Shown piece after piece: positions 11,562-64,000 of a stretch of 64,000 nt of DNA. The notes below the pieces were generated by a model. It had not been told where the DNA came from and searched no databases. It saw only the letters and a list, made by a program, of their open reading frames with translations. Every line of letters starts with the position of its first letter. Within the stretch, counting starts at the first letter, position 1. Source of the stretch: a virus; IMG/VR virus record IMGVR_UViG_3300034284_002648, positions 1 to 64,000 of that record; one strand, given 5' to 3'. The position numbers and the translations under genes were made by a program.

Positions 11562-14500
11562 ATGGCGATATATGTTAAAGGATATAATCCCTGGAATAAT
11601 CCACAGATATATGGAAGTTTTGGAGACACAAGTTGTGGTCAATATGTGGGTTTAGGAGGTATTTATAATACCAGTCCATCATCAGTATTTTACCACAACA
11701 CTTTTGCTCCTGAAGCTATTGATATTGGTGGTGGAGTACAGTCATTTAGTAGTTGTTATACTAATCCAATAGCTGATGGATATAATAATGCTCCCGATCT
11801 ATGTCCTCCTTATGTGGGATCTTTTGCTATTGTTGACAATAATGGAGATGTCTACTTACACGCCCCAAAACATTATGTATATGCTGGGCAATTTGATGCC
11901 AATCCATATCAAACTATGTTTAATAAATTTGCTTCTTGGCCACAGCTTTCGGGGAAAAAATGGAAAAAGGTTTTATTAACACCATTTTCTCTTCACGCTA
12001 TTACAACAACAGGACAATTATGGACTATTGTAAATAATAATGTTTATCAAAATCTGGATCAGTCTCGTCTAGAAGCATATAGCGGCTTGGGTTTGGGATA
12101 TAGAAAAAGAGTTCCAACTATTTTCGGCAGTATAGCTGGTGGTGGAACTTTTATTAGTAGAACATATCCTATGTATGATCGCCCACAATCACCAATATTT
12201 AGCTATACCAATACTATAGATATTTATAGTCCACAAAGAATGGCTTTATTTGGACCAGAATATAGAAAAGTTCTTGGAGATGGTAATCCTGGAACTCTTA
12301 CAACCATCCTAAATGCTAAAGCTGGTATAACTTCGTGTTCAAATGGACCCAGCTGGAGATTTAATGATGCCGGTAATTATGCAAAAATTCTAGATATGTA
12401 TAATTCGGTTTATATTTCTTCTCATAGTAATGTTGCCAATGATGGTAGAACAAATTATACCTCTCCTGGAGACAATCAGCACAGATCATATACTATCCCT
12501 AGTCCATATTACACTGATTGGCCCAATATCAGATCTGGTTCACCAACCTGCGTACCCGCTAATACTGCTGGATGGTTAACCAGAATTACTATAGAAGGTT
12601 CTGTTGCAGATAATTGGAAAGATATATACTATGTGCATGGATGTTTTTATGGAGTAAATACTCTGAATCAGGTTTATGTTTGGGGTCCAAACGTTCCAAC
12701 TCTCGGAGTAGTAGACTATCCTAGATTAACGACCTTGGGCGCAGACGGAGGATTAAGGAATATACAAGGAGGATCTACTGCCCCAGGCTACTCAGCATAT
12801 ACAGCATATGGCATAGACGGTAATGATGATCTAAAATTATGGACCGATATTTCATTAACGCCTGTAACTGTTTATGGTTCATTTAAAAAAGTTATAGCTG
12901 TAAATTCTCTTATGGGCTATAAAAGTGCAGCAAATGGTTTTTTCATAGCTTTAACCAAAACAAATGAAATAGTATTATTATACAACATATCATATAATCC
13001 AGGTATTGCATTCGATAGTAATCTGAGACCAGCACATAGTTTATCTACCATACCACTAGCATCAACACGAGGAGCGACATGGACAGATATTGCTCTAAGT
13101 GCTCCGTGGTTTGGATCCGGATCGGGTGTTAGTATAGACGCTATTAGAAGCGACGGTACGGTATTCAATATCTCTGGTATTACCACTACATTTGCTGGCA
13201 TAGTAACACAGCTATCCAATCAATTATCTGCAAATTCATATTTTGCAATGACATCTAATGATGAATTTAGTCAAACATATGAAAATTATGAGCGTACCAT
13301 ATTTGCAAATTCTTTATCAAATCTGAATACATCATCAACAAAATATATAGTATTTCCTAATGCGGTATACAGTGATATCAACACCCTTATACCAACACCA
13401 ACCCCTACTGCTACAAGTACTAGTACTCCTCCTCCCACTCCTACTGCAACGCCTACGAGAACACCGCCCGTTACTCCGACAACAACCAACACGCCTACTA
13501 TGTCTGTTACTCCGACACAAACACCAACAGGAACAACAACCTGCACACCCACCAATACAGCCACACCAACTAATACATCGACAACTACGCCGACAGCTAC
13601 CAACACCAGAACCCCAACTAATACTGCCACACCAACAAACACAATCACCCCAAGTAACACACCCACAAACAGTCAGACTCCTAGTAATAGTCCTACTATC
13701 AGCACAACACCTACTAATACGGCAACAAACACACAAACCCCAACCAACACACCAACAAATACACAAACTCCTACAAATACGGTTACATCAACTATTACTA
13801 GTACTCCTACTAGAACACAATGTTATTTTACTGATGTTATCCAAAATCCAAGCTTTGAAAATAATGAAACTCAAATATTAGAAAATTGGGATTATTATGG
13901 AGTTTATGTACTTGGAGGGACTAACAAACAAATAGGCTATCTCGGAGGACAGGGCGGAGTTGGACCACTCAGTAATGGTGACTATGCAGTAAGCTTAACT
14001 GGATATACTAATGGTTGGATCAGTCAATCGTTCTATACGAATGTGGGAGACTCTTATGCTATTAGGTTTAAATATACCGGAAACCCAGGCAATAGTCTAA
14101 CACCCAATAATGTCTTGAAAACGGTAAGAGTAGCCATAGGAGAAAATGATAAATCTATAAATTGGTCTAGCGCCGACAAGAGAAATATTAAACCAATATC
14201 ATCTAAGATGAAAACGACAGACTTCACGTTTTCTTCTGCATCATATCCCAATCATAGTCTTACTAATTTACAATGGGAAGATGGTATTATAACATATACA
14301 GCTACATCGGAAGTAACCAGAGTAGTATTTCAAGATTTATCAACCAGTGTAGATGGTAATGACGGTATTATTATCGATAATATAGTTTCTTGTGGAGCAC
14401 AGTATTTTACTAAAACTCCTACTCCTACCTATACTAGTACTCCAACCAATACTCCGACATTAACATCGACAACAACCAATACTCCTACAAACACACCAAC

Positions 14501-16879: not shown

Positions 16880-19800
16880 ATGATCGAATTTGTACAAATT
16901 ATAAATGGATCAATTAATCGTGGTGTATTACCATCCCTTAATGGAGCAGTATTAACATCTTATAATCCTCACGGATGTAATGCTGCGGTATTTGATTATT
17001 TTTTGGTAATAACTGGTCAAGACGGAGTATCAAATCGCAGAGAGATATTCCTATTTACAATCAACCACAATACATTTGGTGCTGTTAATATTGGTGGAAA
17101 AATCTATGCCCCATACGGAGGAAATACTCCCGCTAAAGAGACATTTGTTGGACTACCTATTCCACTAAGCGGTGAAAGATATTTCATAGATGTTAGACCA
17201 AATAGACTAACACCAAATCCACACTGGGCTATGAATCTATGTATATCTGGAAATGGTTTGGCGTTTACCAAAGATGGTGTTACCGCTGGTTTATGTGCAG
17301 CTCCACTAGGAACTATTACACAACCATTACCAACCCCACCTCCAACATCTACTCCTACTCCTACTCCTACAACAATCATATCTCAATGTAAATATAATTT
17401 AACTATCAACCCAAAAACCCATGGACCAAATACTCCATTAGATACTGGCGTTGATATAGATATAACAAATGGTAGAAATATCCGACTAGTAATAGGTACT
17501 ATTGGAACGATAGATTCTAGTTTTGGTACTCCAAGCGGACCCAATGGACTTCCAAACACCGTTGGACCTAATTATATATTTGAAAGACAGTCGTTGTTGG
17601 GTAAAATAGGAATGAATGGAACCCCATTCAAGGTAGGAACATCATATAATAATATACCAACAACAAGCGGTAGACTCTACTTGTTTGTAGATTTATCTTC
17701 TCCGAGTTTTGCTACAGGCAGTTTTTTATCGTCCATCAGTTACGGCTTTACACCCTGCATAAGTCAAACACCAACATCTACAGCAACTCCAACAACCACC
17801 CCTCCATCTACACCATGTATATTTAATAATAGTATACTTAGTAATAGTAGTTTTGAGAATGGGGTTACAGATTGGGATAAATATGCTGTTAATTTAGCTC
17901 CAAATAAAGGTAAAATAGCTTTATCTTTACCTATGAATGGAACTAATGGTTCACAAAATTTCTTAGATACTAGCCCAGAGGGAAAAACGGTAAAAGTATA
18001 CGAAGACGCGACAATCAGTACTCTTAACTATAGAGTTGGAGGATCCAGCGCCTATTTCAACCAATCTGCTATAATTAAAGATTCAATAGTATGCAATAAT
18101 TTTTATTTAGAGGCCAACAAATCTGGATTTTTTAATACAGGTGTTTATTTTAATACAGGAGAAAATATTTTTATCTCCAGTGAAGGCTGTGCTACATTTA
18201 ATGGAACGAATCCTTTTTCAGGAGGATATATTAATGGTGTTATAGTTGATTCTGCTAATCCAACACTGGGTTCAGTATCAAACAATAATAATGTTATATC
18301 TTTTGGAAAGACATATTCTGGTAAAGCTCTATCATCTGGCTACCTATTTTTAGGAATAAATGATTCGTTCTATGGAGATAATACTGGAGGATATTGTGTA
18401 TGTGTGAAAAAAGATATCCTGGACCCAGACTGTAACAGCATAACTAATAGTCCTAATAAATTTATAGATCAAACAAAATGTAAACAAAATATTCAGAATT
18501 GGATTTATCTAGATGATAGTCAAGATTGGGATTTTATTTGTAGCGGAGATTTTACGCTTGAGATGTGGATCAATTTTGATGATGTGTCAAAAGTTATAGG
18601 TATCTGTGGACAATCAGACGGACCATTATTAAATAATAAATGGGGACTATATTATAATGGAACATCCACAACAAATGTTGTTAACGTTGGACATATAGGT
18701 ATATTAATTGGAGATAAAACATTCTCTTCATCTATTAGCGTACCATGGAAACCTATTACTGGAAGATGGTATAATTTAGCAATTACTAGAGAAGATAATA
18801 ATTGGAAATTCTTTATAGATGGACTACAAATAGGTTCAACAGTTATCTCATCTCTTAGACCGGGAAGATCATTAGGACAACTAAGAATAGGCGCAGACGG
18901 CGAAAATTTTGCCAGATTTAGTGGATTCATGAATAGTTTTAGGATAGTCAAAGGGTATGTTGCTTATAAGAATAATTTCATTCCGTCTACTACCCCACTT
19001 ACAAATAATCTTCCTATCACTGTCAGCAATGCTGATGTTGATTCTGTTGTAGATGGAAACGAATGCTTGTTACTAAATGCCGATGGATGGGTGTCCCAAT
19101 CTTTCTTAGCTAGTCCTGGCCAAAGATATATTTTAAGATTTAAATATAGCTCAGATATAGCTAATAAAAATATTCTTTTGCCTACACCTACCGTTACTCC
19201 AAGTATAACTCCATCTAGAAGAAACTTTACCCCATCAAATTTATTAGATCAACAAATTACTGTTGGTAGTGGTCCAGTCGATTTAGTTTCTGATCCAATA
19301 AACCGTAAATTATATGTTGCTAATTCTCTAAGTAATAATATTAGTGTAATAGATCCATATTCATATAAAACATTGAATACATTCGACACAGGAGCTGGAC
19401 AGTGGACATCGGTAGTATCTGGTGGCGTGGTGAATACTGCTCCCGGAAAATTTGCCAAAACATCCGGCAGTAATAACTGGAATGCTCAGGTATACTCCAA
19501 TGAAGGGTTCGTAAGAAGCGCATACTGCTCCGCTCGTGCATCACAAACCAATGCCGGTATAATGTTTGGTCTAACCTCTGACCCAAAAGCAGATGCTGAT
19601 TTTACTGATATAAATTATTGTTGGTATTTTAATTCTAATGGAATTTTAGAAATTTATGAAAATAATGTCAGTAGAGGAGGTTTCGGAACATATACAACTT
19701 CTACTGTTGTATCCATTACATATGACGGAAATAATATTATATATGCAAAAGACGGAGCAGTACAGAGAACCGTCAGTCGTCCAATAGGCAGCGCATTATT

Positions 19801-22800
19801 TTTAGATAGCAGTTTCTTCAACGTTTCATCCGAATTAAATGCTGTTACATTCGCCCCATCCGTTACAGGACAAGGTGGACCAGTAGCACTAGGAATTAAT
19901 AAGAAAACTAACAAGCTGTATATAGCCAATAATACTAGTAATATGGTTACTATTATAGATACTAATACAGATGCTTTTATTGGTAGTATAAATATAAATG
20001 ATGGGCCAAAAAATATAACAGTAGATGATATATTAAATAAGGTTTATGTATCTACAGATACATCTGTTGTTGTGTTAGACGGATATAATGATAAAGTTTT
20101 ATATATTATTAATTGCAGACAATATAATGCTAAACCAGGTAAAGTTGTTTTAGATACATCCTTAAATAGGGTTTTTGTTCTATTAGATCAACCATCATAT
20201 AGTAACAGCACACCCTCCCTCCTATATTTTGATGGTAATAGTAATGTTACACCCACCATTAATACTATCATATCCGAACCATTAAAAGACTTCTATATAG
20301 ACTCTACATCAAATACCCTACACGCAACATTTAAGTTTACAGGATATGGAAAAGATAATCAACTATTTAAATTGAATACTCTGAGTACGAATAAGTCCTT
20401 GTCTGCTGAATGTTTCTTGTCAGGAACAACCAAGCTTATGGTTTCTGGCTTAGACCTAATATATGATCAGGCTACTGGTAGAACTTATCTATATGACAGA
20501 TCAACAAATACACTATACTTAACATATTCATCTAACATAACTTCTTCGACCAAGAAAGTATTTGTTACTTCAGGTATAGTTTATGCTGGCTCTTTTATTA
20601 AGATTAACGAGGTTTACGACGATCCTAGATTAATTTTTATTAATAGCAGTAATTCTAGAATATTCTTTGTTAATGTGCCTAATCAGTTACCACTATCGGT
20701 TTCTTTAGACACTGTTTCCACAGGAAATAGACCAATTGATGGAGATATCAATCCTTTAACACTGAAGGCATATATAACTAATTTTAATAGCGAAGATATA
20801 ACAATAGTAACAGGATTAACTAATAATCCGATTACTTCTGTCTCTAGACAATCTGTTAATGTTGGTAAAAATCCAAGAGCATCAGCTATCAATAAAAACA
20901 CCAATAAGATCTATGTATCCCTGATTACCACAAGTCAAATAGCAGTAATAAATGGATCCACAGATACAGTTGAACAATATATTAGCGTTAATAAATTTCC
21001 CAAATATATAACAGTCGATCACGCCCTAAATCGCATATATGTTTCCACCGCCTCAACAATAGATATTATAGATTGTACAACCAACACAATAATAGCATCT
21101 ATTCCCCATAATTTATCTGCTGGACAATTAGGCAAAGCCATAATTGATTCAAATGCCAGAAGAGTCTTTTTCATGGTGGATTACACATCATTACTTAATC
21201 CTGCTAATGGTAGCTACTCTGTAGTCGCAGACCCCAACGACCCATCATTGCTCTATTTTGATACTAATTTTACATCTGTTCCAAATTTAGCAAGTATTAA
21301 TTATGGTCCAATAAGTGATTTCTTTATTGATGAATTTTTTAATAATTTATACGCTATTCCTTTCAATGATACAACAACATCTTTCTTAAGAATCAACACT
21401 GTTACCTTAGCCAATAGTACCTCTCCAAATATTCTCGATCCAAATAATAAACCAATTCAAATTGGGAATTCATTGTTATATTACAATACCGTTTCCAGCA
21501 GAGTTATACTACACGATCCCGATGCTCAAATTATTTATACATTCTATTCTTTAGCTCTTAGTGGAACAACAGATATTAAGACGAATGTATACTTAAATAA
21601 TGTTATAAATATTAGATCTCTATTTATTAATACTGCATATGATGATAATAAAGTATATCTATTAAATAGTGACTATGATAGAATTAATATCGCTGATCCA
21701 TCAACCGTATTGAATGTCACATTTACTCCAACTCCGACTAGGGCAACGGCCACACCAACGCCAACGCCTACAATTACACCCCCAAACAATGCTAAAAATC
21801 TTATAGTTGCTATAGGTTCGGATAGTGGTTCTACATTATGGAAAAATCCAACATCAGAATTTGATCCGGTAGTAGGCTTGACACAGACCGTATTTAGCTA
21901 TAACCCAGATATTTATCCAAACCATTCATTAAATAATGTTGTTTGGACTGAAGGCGTTGTATTATACACACCAGCAACCCCATCTAATAGAATAGTATTC
22001 AAGACAACTTCAGGTAACATTTTACTGGATTCTATCAATATTTGTGGACAACTAAATATTACCAAAACACCAACACCAACCAATACGATAACACCAAGCA
22101 TCACACCCACCAAAACACCAACAAGTAGCGTTACACCTAGCGTTACTCCAACCATATATACCGACCCATCGTTAAATATTAAACACTATCTTGGTGTTAG
22201 TAGAAAAAAGCGCCTATATAGCTGGGGATTGAATAGTAATGGAGAATTAGGTCAAGGAGACACTATTTCTCGTATCACCCCAACCCTATTTAGGGTCCCA
22301 GGATGGAAAAGAGTCATAAGCAACCCATACTTCTTAACTGCATCACCATCCAAGGATATCGGCAATTTATGGTACGGCATCAAAAATAATTATACTTTAT
22401 GGGAATGGAGAGAAAAATCACCTTCTACCCTTGATGGTGAATTGCTGTTCGTTACTCCTAATGTCTATAGTTTTGTTTATAAGAATGCAAGTTCTATATA
22501 CTATATTCATAGCGATTCTCGTAAGCTATATAGTTATGACTTAATACAGTATCAAAGAAGCTATCAGCCAATTATAGATGAAAAAGTTTATGATGTAGTA
22601 AGCATAGCTCCAAATTTCTTTGCTGTTTTATATGATGGCGAAACAGATTTATTAATCCGCATCAATGGTGAAGATAGCTTTTTGAAATTCAACAAAGATG
22701 AATACCTACAATTATCAGCAAATAGTAATGGCACCCTCTTTGCTATAAAAAATGATAACAAGCTCTATGCATTAGGCAATAATACTAATGGTCAAATAGG

Positions 22801-23992
22801 TAATAATAGTAAACAATATATACAATTTTTAACTAAAATTGGTAATATGTCATGGAAATTTATAAGTAGTGGACAAAAACACACCCTTGCTATTAATACA
22901 GATGGTAATCTATATGGCTGGGGAGATAATTTCTATGGTCAACTTGGAGACGGAACTGCAAGAGAAAGACTTGTTCCAACAGCGTCGGTGAATACATCTA
23001 CGGATTGGACAGAAGTTTTTGCAGGCACGACCTATTCTCTTGGTAAACAATCTAGTAATGTTTTATATGGCTGGGGTCAAAATAATGAATATATGTTAGG
23101 CCTCTTCCCTCCAACAACAAGCAACATATCTGCACCAACAGCACTATTAGGTTATTGGACGGACATTACATTATCTAGCAATAGTGTTTTTGCTCTTGGA
23201 GAACCACCACCAACACCCACACCATCAGTTACAACTACAGTAACTCCATCTATTACTCCAACAAAAACACCAACACAAACACCAACAACCAGCAATACTC
23301 CTACTAAGACACCAACATGTACAGGTACTTCGACCCCGACAAATACTGCTACTCCTACTAATACTGTAACAAATAGTGCAACACCCACTAATACTCCTAC
23401 TCCCACATTAACCGGTACTGTAACTGTAACACCAACCGTATCTAATACGCCAACAAATACAGCTACTCCAACTAATACTGCAACTCCTACAGTAACAAGA
23501 ACTCCAACAAATACGCCAACTAACACAATCACTCCAAGTAGTACTAGTACGCAAACTCCTACAAATACTCTAACAAATACTCCAACAAATAGTGTCACTC
23601 CTAGTATTACTCCAACCATGACTCCCACTCAGACTATGACAAACACTCTGACAAATTCACCAACACCAACTATCACTCCATCAACAAGTCCATTGCTTAC
23701 TGTATTTTTCTATTATATTTCTGAAAGCCAATCTGATATTTGTAATAATAAAGAGGCCAATACAGTTAGAGTTATTAGTGTATACGATAGAGATAATAGT
23801 TTACAGTCTGGATCTTTTATATACAAAGATAAATATGCAAATACAAAATGGGTATTTAATGATTTAGAAACTATACTAAATACCAGCGCCCCTGTAATAT
23901 ATATGTTAGAGCTAAGTTCTAATAAATTATCTACACTTATTGCAGATAATAATGGATATGCTATAATAGATGAACAAGACATTAGTTGCTAA
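16880..23992 (+). CDS. Giant multidomain adhesin-like virion protein (LecA-like x2, LamG, DUF642-like, YVTN propeller, RCC1, TP linkers)
   Basis: LamG: [25 protein letters not shown]: [24 protein letters not shown]. LecA/PA-IL-like: [29 protein letters not shown]1: [28 protein letters not shown]. Confidence 0.75.
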
Positions 23993-24010: not shown

Positions 24011-26071
24011 ATGCTATACAATATAAATTTATCACAATATAATTTATGTCATACATTAACCACCACTACAGTAGATATAGATACTACTGATATAAGTGTT
24101 GGTAACTATCTATATAAAACAAATAATATTCCTTTTTTATGGACAGAATTAAGAGCTATAAGCTCATTATTTGCCACATCTAGAAGTTTCTATCTCAATA
24201 GAACCAATGATACGACCACCATACAAGTAAAAGAAGACTTGACAAATGGCTATGCATTAATTGTGGAAGTCAACGCAACATGTCCTACTCAAACTCCTAC
24301 TCCGTCCATTACAGCATCCAATACTCCCACACCAACTAATACGCCAACACCCACTAATACTAGAACGCCCACAAGAACCCCAACTGTTACACCTAGTCCT
24401 CCTTTAAATAGATATTTATATTATGTCTCATCTAATTTAGAAGATGTTTGCTATAATAGATCTTCTACAGTAGTTAATCCTATCAGTCTGTTCGATATTA
24501 ATTCAACCCTAGAAATAGGGTCTTTCATATATAAAAACTCATCAGCTACTAGCAGATGGTTATTTAGTGAACTCACCACAAGATTAGGTGTTGTGGTATC
24601 TAAACTATATTTAATTCAGAGTAGTACAGGTTTGGTGGCCAGTATAATTTCTGGAACGGGTGGCTTTGCCGTCGTCGATGCAGACAACATACAATGTCCT
24701 GCTATGCAAATGTCAGATGAAACATATTTATTATGTCATACAAATTCATATGTTAATGTACAAATCAGCACAAAAAGTTTAGCAATCAGCAATTATATTT
24801 ATAAGAATAATGGTATAGATAATTGGACTTGGACAGAGTTAGTGGCATTGGATCCATCTTTTTCTGGTGCTGTAAAATTATTCTTAAAAAGGAATAACTA
24901 TATTATACGTATAGAGCAAGACATAGCAACAGACTATGCTGTTATTACAGATACAACCACCATATGTCCAACACAAACACCTACTCCAACCAGAACATCT
25001 ACACCAACTATAAGTGTAAGTCCGACAGTATCAGTCACACCATCTAATAGCAACACTCCTACTCCGAGCATTACTCTAAGTCGCACACCAACAAACACCC
25101 CTACTCCATCATATTCTCCTACTCCAACACCTACAGCAACAGACCCATTGAATGGAGTATACTATTATCTTTCTAATGATTCTTATGCTTTATGTCATAA
25201 TAATCCTGGTAAAATAATTTTAGTTTATGATAATAACGGTATACTAAATATTGGAGAAATATTATATCAAACATCAAATGCTTTAGATATTTGGATGTAT
25301 AGTGAGCTATTAACACTATTAGGTTTACTATCATCTGATGAACTATATATTAGAAGACAAATAGGTGCTTCAACAACAACCTACAAGATAATATCTAATC
25401 AGAATGGGGAATCAGAAGTTGCAGATATTCAAGTTTGTGTTACACAAACGCCAACACCAACTCCAACGAACACTCAAACACCCACTAATACTCAAACACC
25501 AACACAAACACTTACTAGTACTCCTACAAATACAAATACTCCTACTACTAGTGAGACCCCAACAAACACACCTACCAATACAAATACTCCTACAATGACG
25601 GAGACACCAACCAACACACCTACACCAACTAATACGGCCACACCAACTATAACAACTACTCAAACACCAACTAATACTAGTACCCCAAGCGAAACACCAA
25701 CTAATACCCCAACACCAACCAACACATCAACAGTAACTCCTACTGCCACAACAACTAGTACCACTACAGTTACTCCTTCTCCAACAGCTATTTATATTTA
25801 TAAAGCGATAAATATGAAAATTAATAGAGTAATTATTGGACATAATTATAAAGTAGAATTGTCTACAGACGATATTGGATTGGCCAAGGTTGAACCATCC
25901 ATAATAACATTTACAGGAACTTATGATCCTCAAAATATAGCATTTAAAATAGGGTTCTCTGCTGCTTTAGCTACCATTATATTAAATGCCAAAGTAACAG
26001 ATTTAGATACAAATATGATAGAATATAATACTGTATTTATTAAATGTAATGAAATACAAGATTGTTATTAA
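24011..26071 (+). CDS. Thr/Pro-linker virion protein with four ~90-aa Cys-bounded repeats and a C-terminal beta-sandwich
   Basis: Repeats of the form Y.S....LCH...L.IG..IYK...W...EL...C; three TP tracts. Confidence 0.7.
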   Translation: MLYNINLSQYNLCHTLTTTTVDIDTTDISVGNYLYKTNNIPFLWTELRAISSLFATSRSFYLNRTNDTTTIQVKEDLTNGYALIVEVNATCPTQTPTPSITASNTPTPTNTPTPTNTRTPTRTPTVTPSPPLNRYLYYVSSNLEDVCYNRSSTVVNPISLFDINSTLEIGSFIYKNSSATSRWLFSELTTRLGVVVSKLYLIQSSTGLVASIISGTGGFAVVDADNIQCPAMQMSDETYLLCHTNSYVNVQISTKSLAISNYIYKNNGIDNWTWTELVALDPSFSGAVKLFLKRNNYIIRIEQDIATDYAVITDTTTICPTQTPTPTRTSTPTISVSPTVSVTPSNSNTPTPSITLSRTPTNTPTPSYSPTPTPTATDPLNGVYYYLSNDSYALCHNNPGKIILVYDNNGILNIGEILYQTSNALDIWMYSELLTLLGLLSSDELYIRRQIGASTTTYKIISNQNGESEVADIQVCVTQTPTPTPTNTQTPTNTQTPTQTLTSTPTNTNTPTTSETPTNTPTNTNTPTMTETPTNTPTPTNTATPTITTTQTPTNTSTPSETPTNTPTPTNTSTVTPTATTTSTTTVTPSPTAIYIYKAINMKINRVIIGHNYKVELSTDDIGLAKVEPSIITFTGTYDPQNIAFKIGFSAALATIILNAKVTDLDTNMIEYNTVFIKCNEIQDCY

Positions 26072-60293: not shown

Positions 60294-60321
60294 ATTATAC
60301 AAATGGCTGACACCGAGTCAA
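60294..60321 (-). promoter_or_regulatory. Sigma70-type promoter for ssb
   Basis: Minus strand TTGACT-N16-TATAAT, ~46 nt upstream of the ssb ATG. Confidence 0.65.
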
Positions 60322-61934
60322 GCCATAGGTACATAACATTTTTCTACGATCAAGTCGCTTTTCTTGAAGGACTTGGCTCCTTTAAAAATCAGAATGTTTC
60401 CATCAAATAGCTGATTTCTGTATAACGATAGCTGTTCTGTAAAAAATATAACAGAGTCTATATAGCCGGTGCTATCGGTTATACTAACAAATGCCATTTC
60501 ATTACCCTTATTTTTCCCATTCTTAATCTTAATCACATTAACATTATCAATTTCACCAGCGACAATAATATTTTTTCTGTCGGAATCTTTGAACTCTTTA
60601 CATGTTGTATTAGTCATACTTATATCGTATGAATCTACTTTTGAATAGGTTAGATTTATTCCGAGCAGGTTGCTTTCATTATCACAGACCCACTCTATTT
60701 TGTCATCCAAAGAAAATGGAGGCTTGATAAGAGAAGAAATTAAACCTTGTAATATATTTTTACGATTTTGAGTTAGTTTTGGTTTCTTGACCAAAATATT
60801 CATTAGCTGTAAAGTATTGAACTGAGAGACATCAATTGATCTTAAATATTCTATCTCTTTGCTTGTTAGCTCACTCATAATCTCGTATTCAAAAAGCATA
60901 GAGGTTCTAGTTTTAGTAATATAACTGAATGCCCCACTACATATCAAAGCTTTTGCAGCGGTAGAATTGATATTTACTAATAGATTAAGCAGTATTTCTG
61001 ACCATGTAAGATGCTGTATGTCTAAATTTTTAGATAGATCCACAATCTTTTTATAAACCGAGTCGCCCACACCCTTTATGTCTGTAAGACCAAAGTGTAT
61101 TTTGTTGTTATGGATTACAAAAAATTGATTCAACAATCTATAATCTGGTACACAGATTTCTATATCCATATCTGTGGCATTTTTCACCAACTCTTTGATT
61201 TCTTGCTGGGGGTCTATTTTATCTTTTGCATATTTGAGATACGAAGCAAAGAAAATCTTAGGGAAGTGTGCTTTACTATATGCTGATAAATATGCGTTAA
61301 TAGCATAGCTTACGGCGTGAGATTTATTAAATGAGTATCGTTGAGATTTTTCAATCCAACTAAAAATTTGTTCAGCTTCATTTTCTGATGCTAAATTAGT
61401 TTTTTTGCACCCCTCTATAAATATCTTCTTAAGTTTTGCCATCTCTTCTGGTTTTTTCTTACCAATAGCTTTTCTTAACTGATCAGCTTCTTGAAGATCA
61501 AAACCAGCAATTTTCTGAGCTATTTCCATAGCCTGTTCTTGATATACCATCTCTCCGAAGGTGGTCTTAAGAATTGGCTCTAGGGCTGGATTAAAATAGT
61601 CTATAGATTCTTGGCCATTCTTTTTATCTATAAAGTGATTACTAACAGTTTTACCATCTCTAATAGCTTCCAAACATCCCGGTCTCATAATACTAATAAG
61701 AGCAGAAAGTTCTTCTATATTTGAGGGTTTGAGTTTTCTGGCCATGCTTTGCCCTAGGCGTGATTCTAGCTGAAAACATCCTTTGGTATTGCCAGAAGAC
61801 AACATTTCCCAAGTTCTACTGCATTCAAAATTTATGGCATCCATATTAATTGAAAAATCAATTTTTGGCATACCATCAGTGGATTTGTCGATAATAGGGA
61901 ATCGACAACCACAATCAAATGTATAATATTCCAT
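60318..61934 (-). CDS. dnaE: DNA polymerase III alpha, C-terminal half (fingers, HhH, OB)
   Basis: GCFQLES, MRPG, VYQEQAM, RKAIGKKK, YSFNKSHAVSYA, FGLTDIKGVG, MAFVSITDSTG. Confidence 0.9.
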   Translation of the reverse strand: MEYYTFDCGCRFPIIDKSTDGMPKIDFSINMDAINFECSRTWEMLSSGNTKGCFQLESRLGQSMARKLKPSNIEELSALISIMRPGCLEAIRDGKTVSNHFIDKKNGQESIDYFNPALEPILKTTFGEMVYQEQAMEIAQKIAGFDLQEADQLRKAIGKKKPEEMAKLKKIFIEGCKKTNLASENEAEQIFSWIEKSQRYSFNKSHAVSYAINAYLSAYSKAHFPKIFFASYLKYAKDKIDPQQEIKELVKNATDMDIEICVPDYRLLNQFFVIHNNKIHFGLTDIKGVGDSVYKKIVDLSKNLDIQHLTWSEILLNLLVNINSTAAKALICSGAFSYITKTRTSMLFEYEIMSELTSKEIEYLRSIDVSQFNTLQLMNILVKKPKLTQNRKNILQGLISSLIKPPFSLDDKIEWVCDNESNLLGINLTYSKVDSYDISMTNTTCKEFKDSDRKNIIVAGEIDNVNVIKIKNGKNKGNEMAFVSITDSTGYIDSVIFFTEQLSLYRNQLFDGNILIFKGAKSFKKSDLIVEKCYVPMA

Positions 61935-61937
61935 ACT

Positions 61938-62639
61938 TTATATGTTTGCTATATTAAAAGAATTCCTAAATTTTACTTTGGATGCTAATTTCCTATGCAG
62001 TTTCAAAAATCGAATTAGAATTTCAGCAGTGTCTTTTACATCTTTCAAAGCATCATGAGCACCCTCTTTACTAATACCAAGATAATCTCTTACATCATCT
62101 AGAGTATAGCTTTTAAGTTCTTTAGATCCTTCAAACCAATAAAATATAAGATTCATGATATCTATAACATCTCTTGGATAAAAAAGAGAAGAATTCCCTT
62201 CTTTATTCAAGTTTTTATATTTAGTGCTTAGATTTTGAACAATCTTTAAGTCAAACCTATTGATATTGTAGCCCGCTGCTATCGGTGCAGTAAAGCAGGA
62301 TTTTCTTTCTGAACGAATATGATACATCTCTAAATAAGATGTAAACATCTTCCATCCCGCCTCCTGTTTTGGAAAAGATTTCCAAGAATTAAGAATATCA
62401 TCTTTGGATGATCCTCTAACCTTAGCATGAAAATCTAAAACATCAGAATCCTCATACGCATAGCTACTATTTTTTTCCAGAGCATCTGGTCTTAGATTGA
62501 TATTAAATTCGGAATCTGGTATGATTTCTAATTTAAATGGATCTACGATAATAGCAGCTATTTGTACAGGACTACAAACATTCGGATCCTTGCCATCTGT
62601 CTCAAGGTCGAAGACACAAATTTTTTGATTATTAGCCAT
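61938..62639 (-). CDS. dnaQ: DnaQ-like DEDDh 3'-5' exonuclease
   Basis: ExoI FDLETDG, ExoII GYNINRFD, ExoIII HDALKD. Confidence 0.85.
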   Translation of the reverse strand: MANNQKICVFDLETDGKDPNVCSPVQIAAIIVDPFKLEIIPDSEFNINLRPDALEKNSSYAYEDSDVLDFHAKVRGSSKDDILNSWKSFPKQEAGWKMFTSYLEMYHIRSERKSCFTAPIAAGYNINRFDLKIVQNLSTKYKNLNKEGNSSLFYPRDVIDIMNLIFYWFEGSKELKSYTLDDVRDYLGISKEGAHDALKDVKDTAEILIRFLKLHRKLASKVKFRNSFNIANI

Positions 62640-62829
62640 TAATTACCACTGCTGTTCCTGGTGCGAAAAAAGTCTTATTGCCTGTGTTAGCCGTATCCTC
62701 TGCATTATAAGATTTGCAGCAACTAACCTTAATTAACTCTATCTTTCTGTATGTGGTGTCTGATCCTGGTACTTTAAACTCTTGACCAACACCTAGTTCA
62801 GAAAATAGTTTGTTCATAACTACCTCCAT
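62632..62829 (-). CDS. Small hypothetical protein (62-65 aa)
   Basis: Fills the gap between dnaE-N and dnaQ and overlaps both. A GGAGG SD precedes the second ATG (MNKLF, 62817). Confidence 0.6.
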   Translation of the reverse strand: MEVVMNKLFSELGVGQEFKVPGSDTTYRKIELIKVSCCKSYNAEDTANTGNKTFFAPGTAVVING

Positions 62830-64000
62830 TTTTCAATAGTGTGCTTACTGTCATTACTTTATCTAACATTGCTACGCCCAAAATATCGAATTTGATTATA
62901 CCCAATGTTTCCAAATCTTGCATTTCCATGCCAGCTATTTGTTGTTTATTTTTAGTATCATAGACCATAGGACAAATACTCCCTAGTCTTTGATCCGATA
63001 TAACAATACCAGCAGCATGTTTGGACTGATTCACTTTTGTCCCTTCTAGCCTAATGGCTTGTTCAAACCTTTTTGCTAGAGGGCCAGACAGAGAGCCATC
63101 CTCATTAATATAACACCAATTCTTCAGTTTGTCAACATTATTTTCTAAGGCCCACTGGATTATCGACGCTTCTCCGTATTCCTCTTTCATTTCTTGAAGT
63201 TCGTCAGCTATTTTGGCTTCGTCTGGTATATTTTTTGTAATTGAATTCATTTCGTCAAAACTTATATCGCCATACACTCGGAGAACATCTTTTAGAGCAC
63301 CCCTACCCTTAAGAGTATTGAAAGTGATCATTTGCGAAACATTTTCAACACCATATCTATTCTTAATGTAGTTGATAACATCCTCTCTCTTATTAATAGG
63401 GACGTCAACATCAATATCTGGCATCGAAATTCTATCTTTAGTATTTCTACCAGCATTATAAAATCTTTCAAAGATCAGATTATATTTTAATGGATCAATA
63501 CTGGTTATACCTATGAGATATGAAACCAGACATCCTGCTGCCGAACCACGACCGGGACCGGGTAACCACCCCTTATTCCTCACAAAATTCACTATATCGG
63601 ACACTATTAAAAAGTAGCTAGACAGACCAGCACCCTGTAAAACAGAGAGTTCGTATTTGATTCTATCTGTGTATTCGCCTTGCTTATCCTTATCTATAAC
63701 ATTGGCGATTTTATCCCTCCAGCCGTTTCTACATAGTTGTCTAAGAAATTCATCTGGATCATTACCTTCGCATTCAAATGGAGGCAACATTGGTCTATGA
63801 GATATATCATAATCTTCACACATACTATCTACTAGATTAGTATTCTCTATCTCTTCTGAGGTATGAATAGACGACATTTCTTCTGGAGACAATATATAAT
63901 AATTATCTGAAATGAAAAATGTAGACATTGGAACAGATTCATGGTTGACTATTTTCCTGTTAATGTCTGTAAATGTTGTCTTTAGATTATTGCATAATAA
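62798..64000 (-). CDS. dnaE: DNA polymerase III alpha, N-terminal half (end of PHP plus palm/thumb), 5'-partial
   Basis: The frame is open to the window edge (LLCNNLKTT...). Motifs GPGRGSAAG, FERF, catalytic MPDIDVD, HAAGIVI and KFDILG are followed by a stop. Confidence 0.9.
   Translation of the reverse strand, partial: LLCNNLKTTFTDINRKIVNHESVPMSTFFISDNYYILSPEEMSSIHTSEEIENTNLVDSMCEDYDISHRPMLPPFECEGNDPDEFLRQLCRNGWRDKIANVIDKDKQGEYTDRIKYELSVLQGAGLSSYFLIVSDIVNFVRNKGWLPGPGRGSAAGCLVSYLIGITSIDPLKYNLIFERFYNAGRNTKDRISMPDIDVDVPINKREDVINYIKNRYGVENVSQMITFNTLKGRGALKDVLRVYGDISFDEMNSITKNIPDEAKIADELQEMKEEYGEASIIQWALENNVDKLKNWCYINEDGSLSGPLAKRFEQAIRLEGTKVNQSKHAAGIVISDQRLGSICPMVYDTKNKQQIAGMEMQDLETLGIIKFDILGVAMLDKVMTVSTLLKNGGSYEQTIF

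Follow-up and report, generated by a model that had tools for sequence, protein, structure and literature searches.

A predicted jelly-roll domain divided into three pieces by two large insertions in a 2370-residue protein of an uncultured large phage

The DNA analysed in this study (IMG/VR virus record IMGVR_UViG_3300034284_002648, positions 1 to 64,000, hereafter referred to as the window) comprises the first 64 kb of one 80,257-bp contig. It contains the gene for P0001, a multidomain protein of 2370 amino acids (aa), whose domain architecture is described here. The genes of the window are closely packed and many of them code for very large products with Pro/Thr linkers and RCC1-like propellers. 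Some modules of the encoded proteins match PHROGs labelled as tail fibre or head decoration. The closest relative of the window is L001, a viral IMG/VR contig of 232,683 bp. In comparisons with GenBank phages, no match was obtained either by megablast with the P0001 gene or by tblastn with the third of the jelly-roll pieces described below. The relatives of a DnaE fragment found in the window all show less than 40% identity to it, and no cultured phage is close. The source is read as part of an uncultured large phage.

At the top level, P0001 consists of an N-terminal domain, a domain at aa 166-292, a nested cluster (aa 313-1725), an RCC1 propeller and a C-terminal domain. These units are connected by Pro/Thr linkers. 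The only Pfam domains detected were Laminin_G_3 (aa 553-690) and the RCC1 propeller (aa ~1950-2090), and Pfam yielded no DUF642 match in P0001 at E ≤ 1. Four full-length orthologs with an identity of approximately 70% were found (P0003, P0004, P0005 and an open reading frame (ORF) of L001). The nested cluster has a length of 1413 aa in P0001 and of approximately 1255 aa in the orthologs.

P0002, encoded upstream of P0001 (11562-16868), harbours an unbroken jelly roll. This domain matched the choice-of-anchor C family TIGR04362 with an E-value of 5.3e-14 and 52.7 bits (curated cut-off 120) and DUF642 (PF04862) with an E-value of 7.8e-5 and 22.9 bits (cut-off 27). Since the phage copies fall below both curated cut-offs, they are regarded as relatives of TIGR04362 and DUF642 and not as members by threshold. 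The host jelly roll of P0001 has the conserved motifs of this choice-of-anchor C/DUF642 group, whose domains occur in bacterial surface proteins with a PEP-CTERM anchor and in cell-wall proteins of plants, and it can be aligned with the family profile. An AlphaFold2 model of the P0002 domain, calculated from a 23-sequence alignment, reached a predicted local distance difference test score (pLDDT) of 85.3 and a predicted template modelling score (pTM) of 0.87. When this model was compared with known structures using Foldseek, matches were obtained to CBM61, CBM16, CBM4, the sugar-binding domain of Fbs1 and domains of Cry toxins (E-values from 9e-9 to 1e-5, with 9e-9 to 1e-7 for CBM61, CBM16 and the Cry domains; probability 1.00). 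Based on these matches, the P0002 domain is predicted to be a jelly roll of the carbohydrate-binding module (CBM) type with a galactose-binding-domain-like fold.

An earlier sequence-only reading of this DNA had claimed that a DUF642-like jelly roll is cut into three pieces in P0001. At the level of sequence homology this claim was confirmed, and the pieces are collinear and complementary (Table 1). The three best BLASTP matches of the P0002 domain in P0001 were collinear, with query residues 1-30 matching aa 313-345 (E 0.019), residues 64-91 matching aa 735-762 (E 5e-6) and residues 86-192 matching aa 1625-1723 (E 3e-15, 35% identity over 107 columns). When concatenated (168 aa), the pieces aligned end to end with the reference domain at 33% identity (E 8e-25), and the alignment showed a single sizeable gap, located at the position of insert 1. 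A family hidden Markov model (HMM) was built from 23 contiguous members obtained by an exhaustive search, and sequences of the P0001 family were left out of it as a precaution against circularity. Nodes 32-63, 83-123 and 127-204 of this HMM were found at aa 315-346, 724-762 and 1638-1736 of P0001, with independent E-values of 0.012, 1.8e-6 and 9.3e-7, respectively. The equivalent three segments are present in the same order in all four orthologs. Judged by the 23-sequence family alignment, all five split proteins retain 7 of the 8 invariant and 7 of the 12 near-invariant columns; piece 1 keeps the family columns N, F, E and W, while piece 2 keeps the invariant residues G, G, Q, Y and F. A Pro/Thr linker is located on the outer side of each piece, so that there is no adjacent sequence which could complete a separate jelly roll. 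The host domain amounts to 171 aa and the inserted sequence to 1242 aa, which is approximately seven times the host and refines the earlier estimate of approximately 1250 aa in a host of approximately 190 aa.

Table 1 Features of the P0001 gene and of the reference domain (positions refer to the window)
Feature	Residues	Position	Strand	Remark
Unbroken jelly roll in P0002	aa 754-947 (194 aa)	13821-14402	+	used as reference
Gene for multidomain protein P0001	2370 aa	16880-23992	+	single uninterrupted ORF
Jelly-roll piece 1	aa 313-345 (33 aa)	17816-17914	+	directly after a Pro/Thr linker
Probable LamG N-terminal strands	aa 346-396	17915-18067	+	weak LamG HMM match
PA-IL/LecA-like candidate domain	aa 397-548 (~150 aa)	18068-18523	+	flanked by the two parts of LamG
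LamG main body and connector	aa 549-717	18524-19030	+	Pfam and local HMM
Jelly-roll piece 2	aa 718-763 (46 aa)	19031-19168	+	BLASTP and independent HMM
Pro/Thr linker out of the jelly roll	aa 764-778 (15 aa)	19169-19213	+	from translation; invariant in orthologs
YVTN unit 1, first blade	aa 779-839	19214-19396	+	weak YncE/lactonase propeller matches; aligns to unit 2
Autonomous 160-aa module	aa 840-999	19397-19876	+	in blade-to-blade loop; only in the phage of the window
YVTN unit 1, rest	aa 1000-1235	19877-20584	+	TIGR02276
YVTN unit 2	aa 1236-1612	20585-21715	+	YncE 7-blade and PQQ-propeller matches; paralog of unit 1
Pro/Thr linker back into the jelly roll	aa 1613-1633 (21 aa)	21716-21778	+	from translation
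Jelly-roll piece 3	aa 1634-1725 (92 aa)	21779-22054	+	followed by another Pro/Thr linker

Insert 1 (aa 346-717) has a length of 372 aa. The presence of a LamG domain in this insert, as put forward in the earlier reading, was corroborated by the match to the ConA-like family Laminin_G_3 (PF13385) with 46.7 bits, which is above the gathering threshold of 27.6, and by a local LamG HMM, of which nodes 76-221 were found at aa 554-709 (E 4.9e-34). From these matches, the LamG domain is predicted to be inserted into the jelly roll. It had also been claimed that the LamG domain is itself interrupted by a LecA-like domain, and for this part several weak leads are concordant. Nodes 19-61 of the full-unit LamG HMM were located at aa 355-396 with a conditional E-value of 0.012. 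Three matches of 26 aa (58% identity), situated just upstream of LamG units in P0028 and P0029, agree with this location. A weak match to P0056, a distant relative described below, also places the LamG N-terminal strands at this position, collinear with the main body. The two LamG matches are separated by 157 residues, compared to 15 nodes in the HMM.

The region between the LamG parts (aa 397-548) did not match any Pfam family at E ≤ 10, PA-IL (PF07828) included, and nothing significant was found in Pfam, NCBIfam and PDB sequence searches. A word-indexed search among small proteins yielded no homologs. The sole match in a PDB profile search was the PA-I galactophilic lectin 6ygq_A, with an E-value of 0.72 and nearly the whole lectin covered. 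A second lead came from the Atlas, with a cluster score of 0.91 and PA-IL on 17% of the cluster members.

Two arrangements of insert 1 were compared. In the nested arrangement, the LamG domain would be interrupted by the PA-IL-like domain. In the tandem arrangement, a complete LamG domain at approximately aa 520-712 would follow a unit (aa 346-548) containing the PA-IL-like part, and this branch would be only one level deep. Weighing against nesting, the N-terminal LamG match at aa 355-396 is marginal (1.3 bits), LamG-N-like motifs also occur after the PA-IL-like region (aa 525-553) and leave room for the tandem arrangement, and an extension of LamG into the middle region is obtained with hhalign only at a low confidence level. 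The PA-IL identity lies below every significance threshold, and the region is regarded as a candidate and not as a family member. The tandem arrangement is opposed by three independent weak matches that assign the N-terminal strands of LamG to aa 346-397, in collinear order with the body, and by the LamG domain of P0056, which the HMM covers without a break, in contrast to the 157 residues over 15 nodes found here. We consider the nested arrangement the fairly probable one and the tandem arrangement rather unlikely.

The domain at aa 166-292 (17375-17755) and the PA-IL-like insert have a weak motif in common, in which G.LYLF precedes a Gly-rich turn. The former may be a second PA-IL-like domain; homology between the two was not established by hhalign (probability 27%), and Pfam, NCBIfam and PDB sequence searches with the aa 166-292 domain gave nothing significant.

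Insert 2 (aa 764-1633) is 870 aa long and bears Pro/Thr linkers at both ends. The earlier description of this insert as a YVTN propeller region flanked by Thr-Pro-rich sequence agrees with our results. The TIGR02276 YVTN repeat was detected in unit 1 with 40.9 bits (curated cut-off 27.85), and the ortholog P0003 has already been named 'YVTN family beta-propeller protein' by a source. The propeller part of the insert (19214-21715) is a tandem duplication, with units at aa 779-1235 and aa 1236-1612 that share approximately 30% identity. Comparison of unit 1 with unit 2 using hhalign gave a probability of 99.8% and an E-value of 2e-27. Self-BLAST of the insert yielded no repeats, and the duplication surfaced only in the profile comparison. 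In the unbroken loop of P0002 (14085-14115), the translation reads ..SLTPNN.. where the end of insert 2 in the split copy (21760-21800) reads ..ITPPNN... A short Thr-Pro motif resembling the linkers may have existed in the ancestral loop already.

The 'further beta domain' that had been reported to interrupt the propeller corresponds to the 160-aa module in unit 1. This module is a clean alignment gap in P0003, P0004, P0005 and the L001 ORF. As it is present in P0001 and absent in these four orthologs, it provides a direct presence/absence case of insertion. Homologs of the module (40-55% identity) occur as tandem copies in other proteins, with seven copies in P0033, two in P0034 and four in P0043. 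Single copies were found in proteins with collagen repeats, an S74 chaperone domain or RCC1. Sequence searches of Pfam, NCBIfam and the PDB revealed nothing significant for the module, and the sole lead to its fold is a weak SPRY-related Atlas match (0.89). Homology together with the ortholog indel points to a two-level nesting in which the jelly roll carries the YVTN region and the YVTN region carries the 160-aa module.

The G + C content of the module is 0.40, compared to 0.33 and 0.29 in its flanks, and the 6-nt direct repeat ACAGGA (Thr-Gly codons) is located at both of its junctions (19385-19400 and 19862-19880). Both features are suggestive of a recent acquisition, with the repeat being short enough to occur by chance. 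A 9-nt word that the DNA of the two Pro/Thr linkers has in common is also within chance expectation, and junction microhomology beyond chance was not found at these sites.

A further insertion site was observed in P0056, a distant relative of 2839 aa that contains RCC1. This protein has one contiguous jelly roll and a second, interrupted copy (aa 1853-2233), which comprises an N-terminal part (aa 1853-~1975), a LamG domain (aa 1982-2188) and a C-terminal part (aa 2184-2233). The LamG domain is complete and unbroken (HMM nodes 14-218, E 5.1e-31) and occupies a jelly-roll loop that is unused in P0001. P0056 is regarded as an independent case of the same host domain taking an insert. Approximately 40 other homologs of the jelly roll were examined and all were contiguous, the second copy of P0056 being the exception.

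Both break points in P0001 map to loops of the P0002 model. Break 1 is located at reference residues 48/49 within the loop formed by residues 33-54, and break 2 at reference residues 92-95 within the loop formed by residues 88-99. The earlier proposal that modules are gained by loop insertion is directly supported for the 160-aa module and for the LamG domain of P0056. For the two large inserts of P0001, loop insertion is deduced from the unbroken paralog in the neighbouring gene and from the position of both breaks in loops.

Co-folding of the pieces was examined with aa 306-770 and aa 1625-1730 as two separate chains. The score was 0.60 (0.56, 0.77 and 0.60 in the individual runs), while the best of three controls scored 0.00. 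At least 62% of the contacts agreed between the runs and the pLDDT of the partner was at least 52. Of 78 solved complexes, 51 attained the mark applied in this test, as did 2 of 108 mismatched pairs. Scores of 0.60 or below were seen in only 5 of the 78 solved complexes and in all 4 mismatches that passed (of 180). The result is rated as weak support. Because the test chains are halves of one common fold, the pass may mirror the likeness to solved jelly rolls.

We infer that the three pieces would fold as one domain within one chain. In an alternative reading, the jelly roll would be closed between chains, with pieces 1 and 2 of one subunit pairing with piece 3 of another in an oligomeric fibre. 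By such domain swapping, the split would serve assembly in addition to display. The two-propeller insert of 870 aa is attached through flexible linkers (15 and 21 aa) and would permit pairing in trans as readily as in cis, and the co-folding test, which used two separate chains, is blind to this difference. Insert 1, however, lacks long linkers, no sign of oligomerisation was observed, and closure in cis is the rule for nested insertions, the solved RTX adhesin structures with split domains being an example (PMC12077191). Pairing between chains is therefore considered improbable.

Between the window and L001, the three pieces share 74% identity with a ratio of non-synonymous to synonymous substitution rates (dN/dS) of approximately 0.08, compared to 0.09 for the whole protein; these ratios are rough since dS is saturated. 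The pieces appear to be under purifying selection in the same way as the rest of the protein. The notion that they are decaying relics which no longer fold, leaving a protein that is in effect a string of beads, could appeal to the lack of a direct structural model of the split domain, but is very improbable given this conservation, the 7 of 8 family-invariant residues kept in all five orthologs, the exact complementarity of the pieces with neither overlap nor strand loss, and the margin of +0.60 between co-fold and control, weak as this last support is rated.

Other observations concern the C-terminal part of P0001 and the region downstream of it. The C-terminal domain of approximately 100 aa (23690-23989) recurs in the next gene at 24404-24697 and 25160-25306, the second copy being weaker. 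A copy in that gene was detected by tblastn with 33% identity and an E-value of 1e-20. Further downstream, DnaE (Pol III alpha) is encoded on the minus strand (60318-63928) in separate ORFs, one for the NTPase/palm part (62798-63928) and one for the finger/HHH/OB part (60318-61934), with an ORF for 233 aa between them (61938-62639).

From the observed collinear homology of the three pieces and its conservation, the location of the breaks in loops and the presence/absence of the 160-aa module, we conclude that P0001 is likely a large phage surface or adhesion protein with a small CBM-type jelly roll as a 'split domain' hub. Two surface loops of the jelly roll would each send out a long excursion of the chain, which leaves the domain, folds into domains of binding type and returns. 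The first loop would carry the LamG domain, which in turn probably carries a PA-IL-like lectin domain. The second would carry the two tandem YVTN units on their Pro/Thr tethers, with the 160-aa module in unit 1 of the phage of the window only. The inserted domains may bind ligands on the host surface. Modules would be gained by in-frame recombination into loops, and close relatives would consequently differ in their set of binding modules.

Several observations weigh against this conclusion. PHROGs gave no tail-fibre assignment for P0001, and its putative binding function derives from the domain types. The labels 'receptor-binding' and 'fibre', used in the sequence-only reading, would follow from the domain types and the gene neighbourhood. 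Taken alone, piece 1 is a weak match (E of about 0.01-0.02). There is no confident three-dimensional model of the split jelly roll, and an AlphaFold2 prediction for aa 300-770 of P0001 from a 5-sequence alignment was unusable (pLDDT 40, pTM 0.32). The weak rating of the co-folding result also belongs here. The earlier characterisation of the protein as tree-like instead of beads-on-string holds for the nested cluster (aa 313-1725), while the protein as a whole remains a linear series of linker-connected units.

A more far-reaching interpretation, in which the jelly roll is a dedicated plug-in hub in a lineage of large phages, is tentative and at present somewhat doubtful. At least three loops would then take up whole binding domains, even tethered pairs of propellers, and relatives would vary in them. 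This reading demands that a domain of 171 aa folds across an excursion of 870 aa.

The principles involved, i.e. nested insertions and the display of binding modules by split domains, are already established. In RTX adhesins such as AhLap of Aeromonas hydrophila and FrhA of Vibrio cholerae, 'split domains' project ligand-binding domains, the N and C termini of the inserted domains are adjacent, and the RTX roll of AhLap carries a vWFA domain, which carries a further insert (PMC12077191, PMC10865825). As in P0001, the sequence of a small beta-sandwich is interrupted, and a CBM, a vWFA domain or another binding domain emerges sideways. RTX adhesins, however, are bacterial proteins in which beta-rolls or Ig-like domains of the extender type serve as hosts, usually with one insert each, whereas P0001 features a CBM-type jelly-roll host from a phage with two inserts, one of which is a tethered propeller pair. 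The likeness is architectural and no sequence kinship is claimed.

A survey of domain insertions based on ECOD and the AlphaFold database found insertions in 20% of multidomain proteins, with inserts usually smaller than their hosts, nested A1-B1-C-B2-A2 arrangements, e.g. in NdhH, and up to six levels in the cyanobacterial RNA polymerase beta' subunit (PMC13114784). These cases are similar to P0001 in the recursive A1-B-A2 pattern and in the occurrence of several insertions in one host. P0001 differs in having 1242 aa within a host of 171 aa and one level that is polymorphic among orthologs of approximately 70% identity.

CBM insertions are also reported for siphophages of lactococci and streptococci, in 'evolved' Dit and Tal proteins and in neck-passage proteins (PMC6669499, PMC7533335). 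In the cases described there, virion proteins likewise gain CBMs in loops of host domains and relatives vary in their modules. The hosts in these cases are conserved baseplate or tail domains with CBM insertion at a single level, whereas the host in P0001 is itself a CBM-like module in a giant protein and nesting to a depth of two levels is predicted for both branches. Unusual in P0001 and its relatives are the size ratio, the two-propeller insert tethered by linkers, the use of three loops within the family and the polymorphism of one insertion among close orthologs.

A domain present in pieces of 33, 46 and 92 aa escapes Pfam, with the consequence that giant phage proteins are mis-segmented into 'unknown' stretches. 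The window, the orthologs and P0056 together form a small natural series of unbroken, singly inserted, doubly inserted and nested jelly rolls. With inserts that exceed their host sevenfold in size, one of them on flexible tethers, P0001 runs contrary to the trend of inserts being smaller than hosts (PMC13114784) and could guide loop-grafting designs. If the jelly roll is indeed a dedicated hub, it would offer a natural scaffold for loop grafting by which host recognition could change rapidly, and would put the folding of discontinuous domains to an extreme test.

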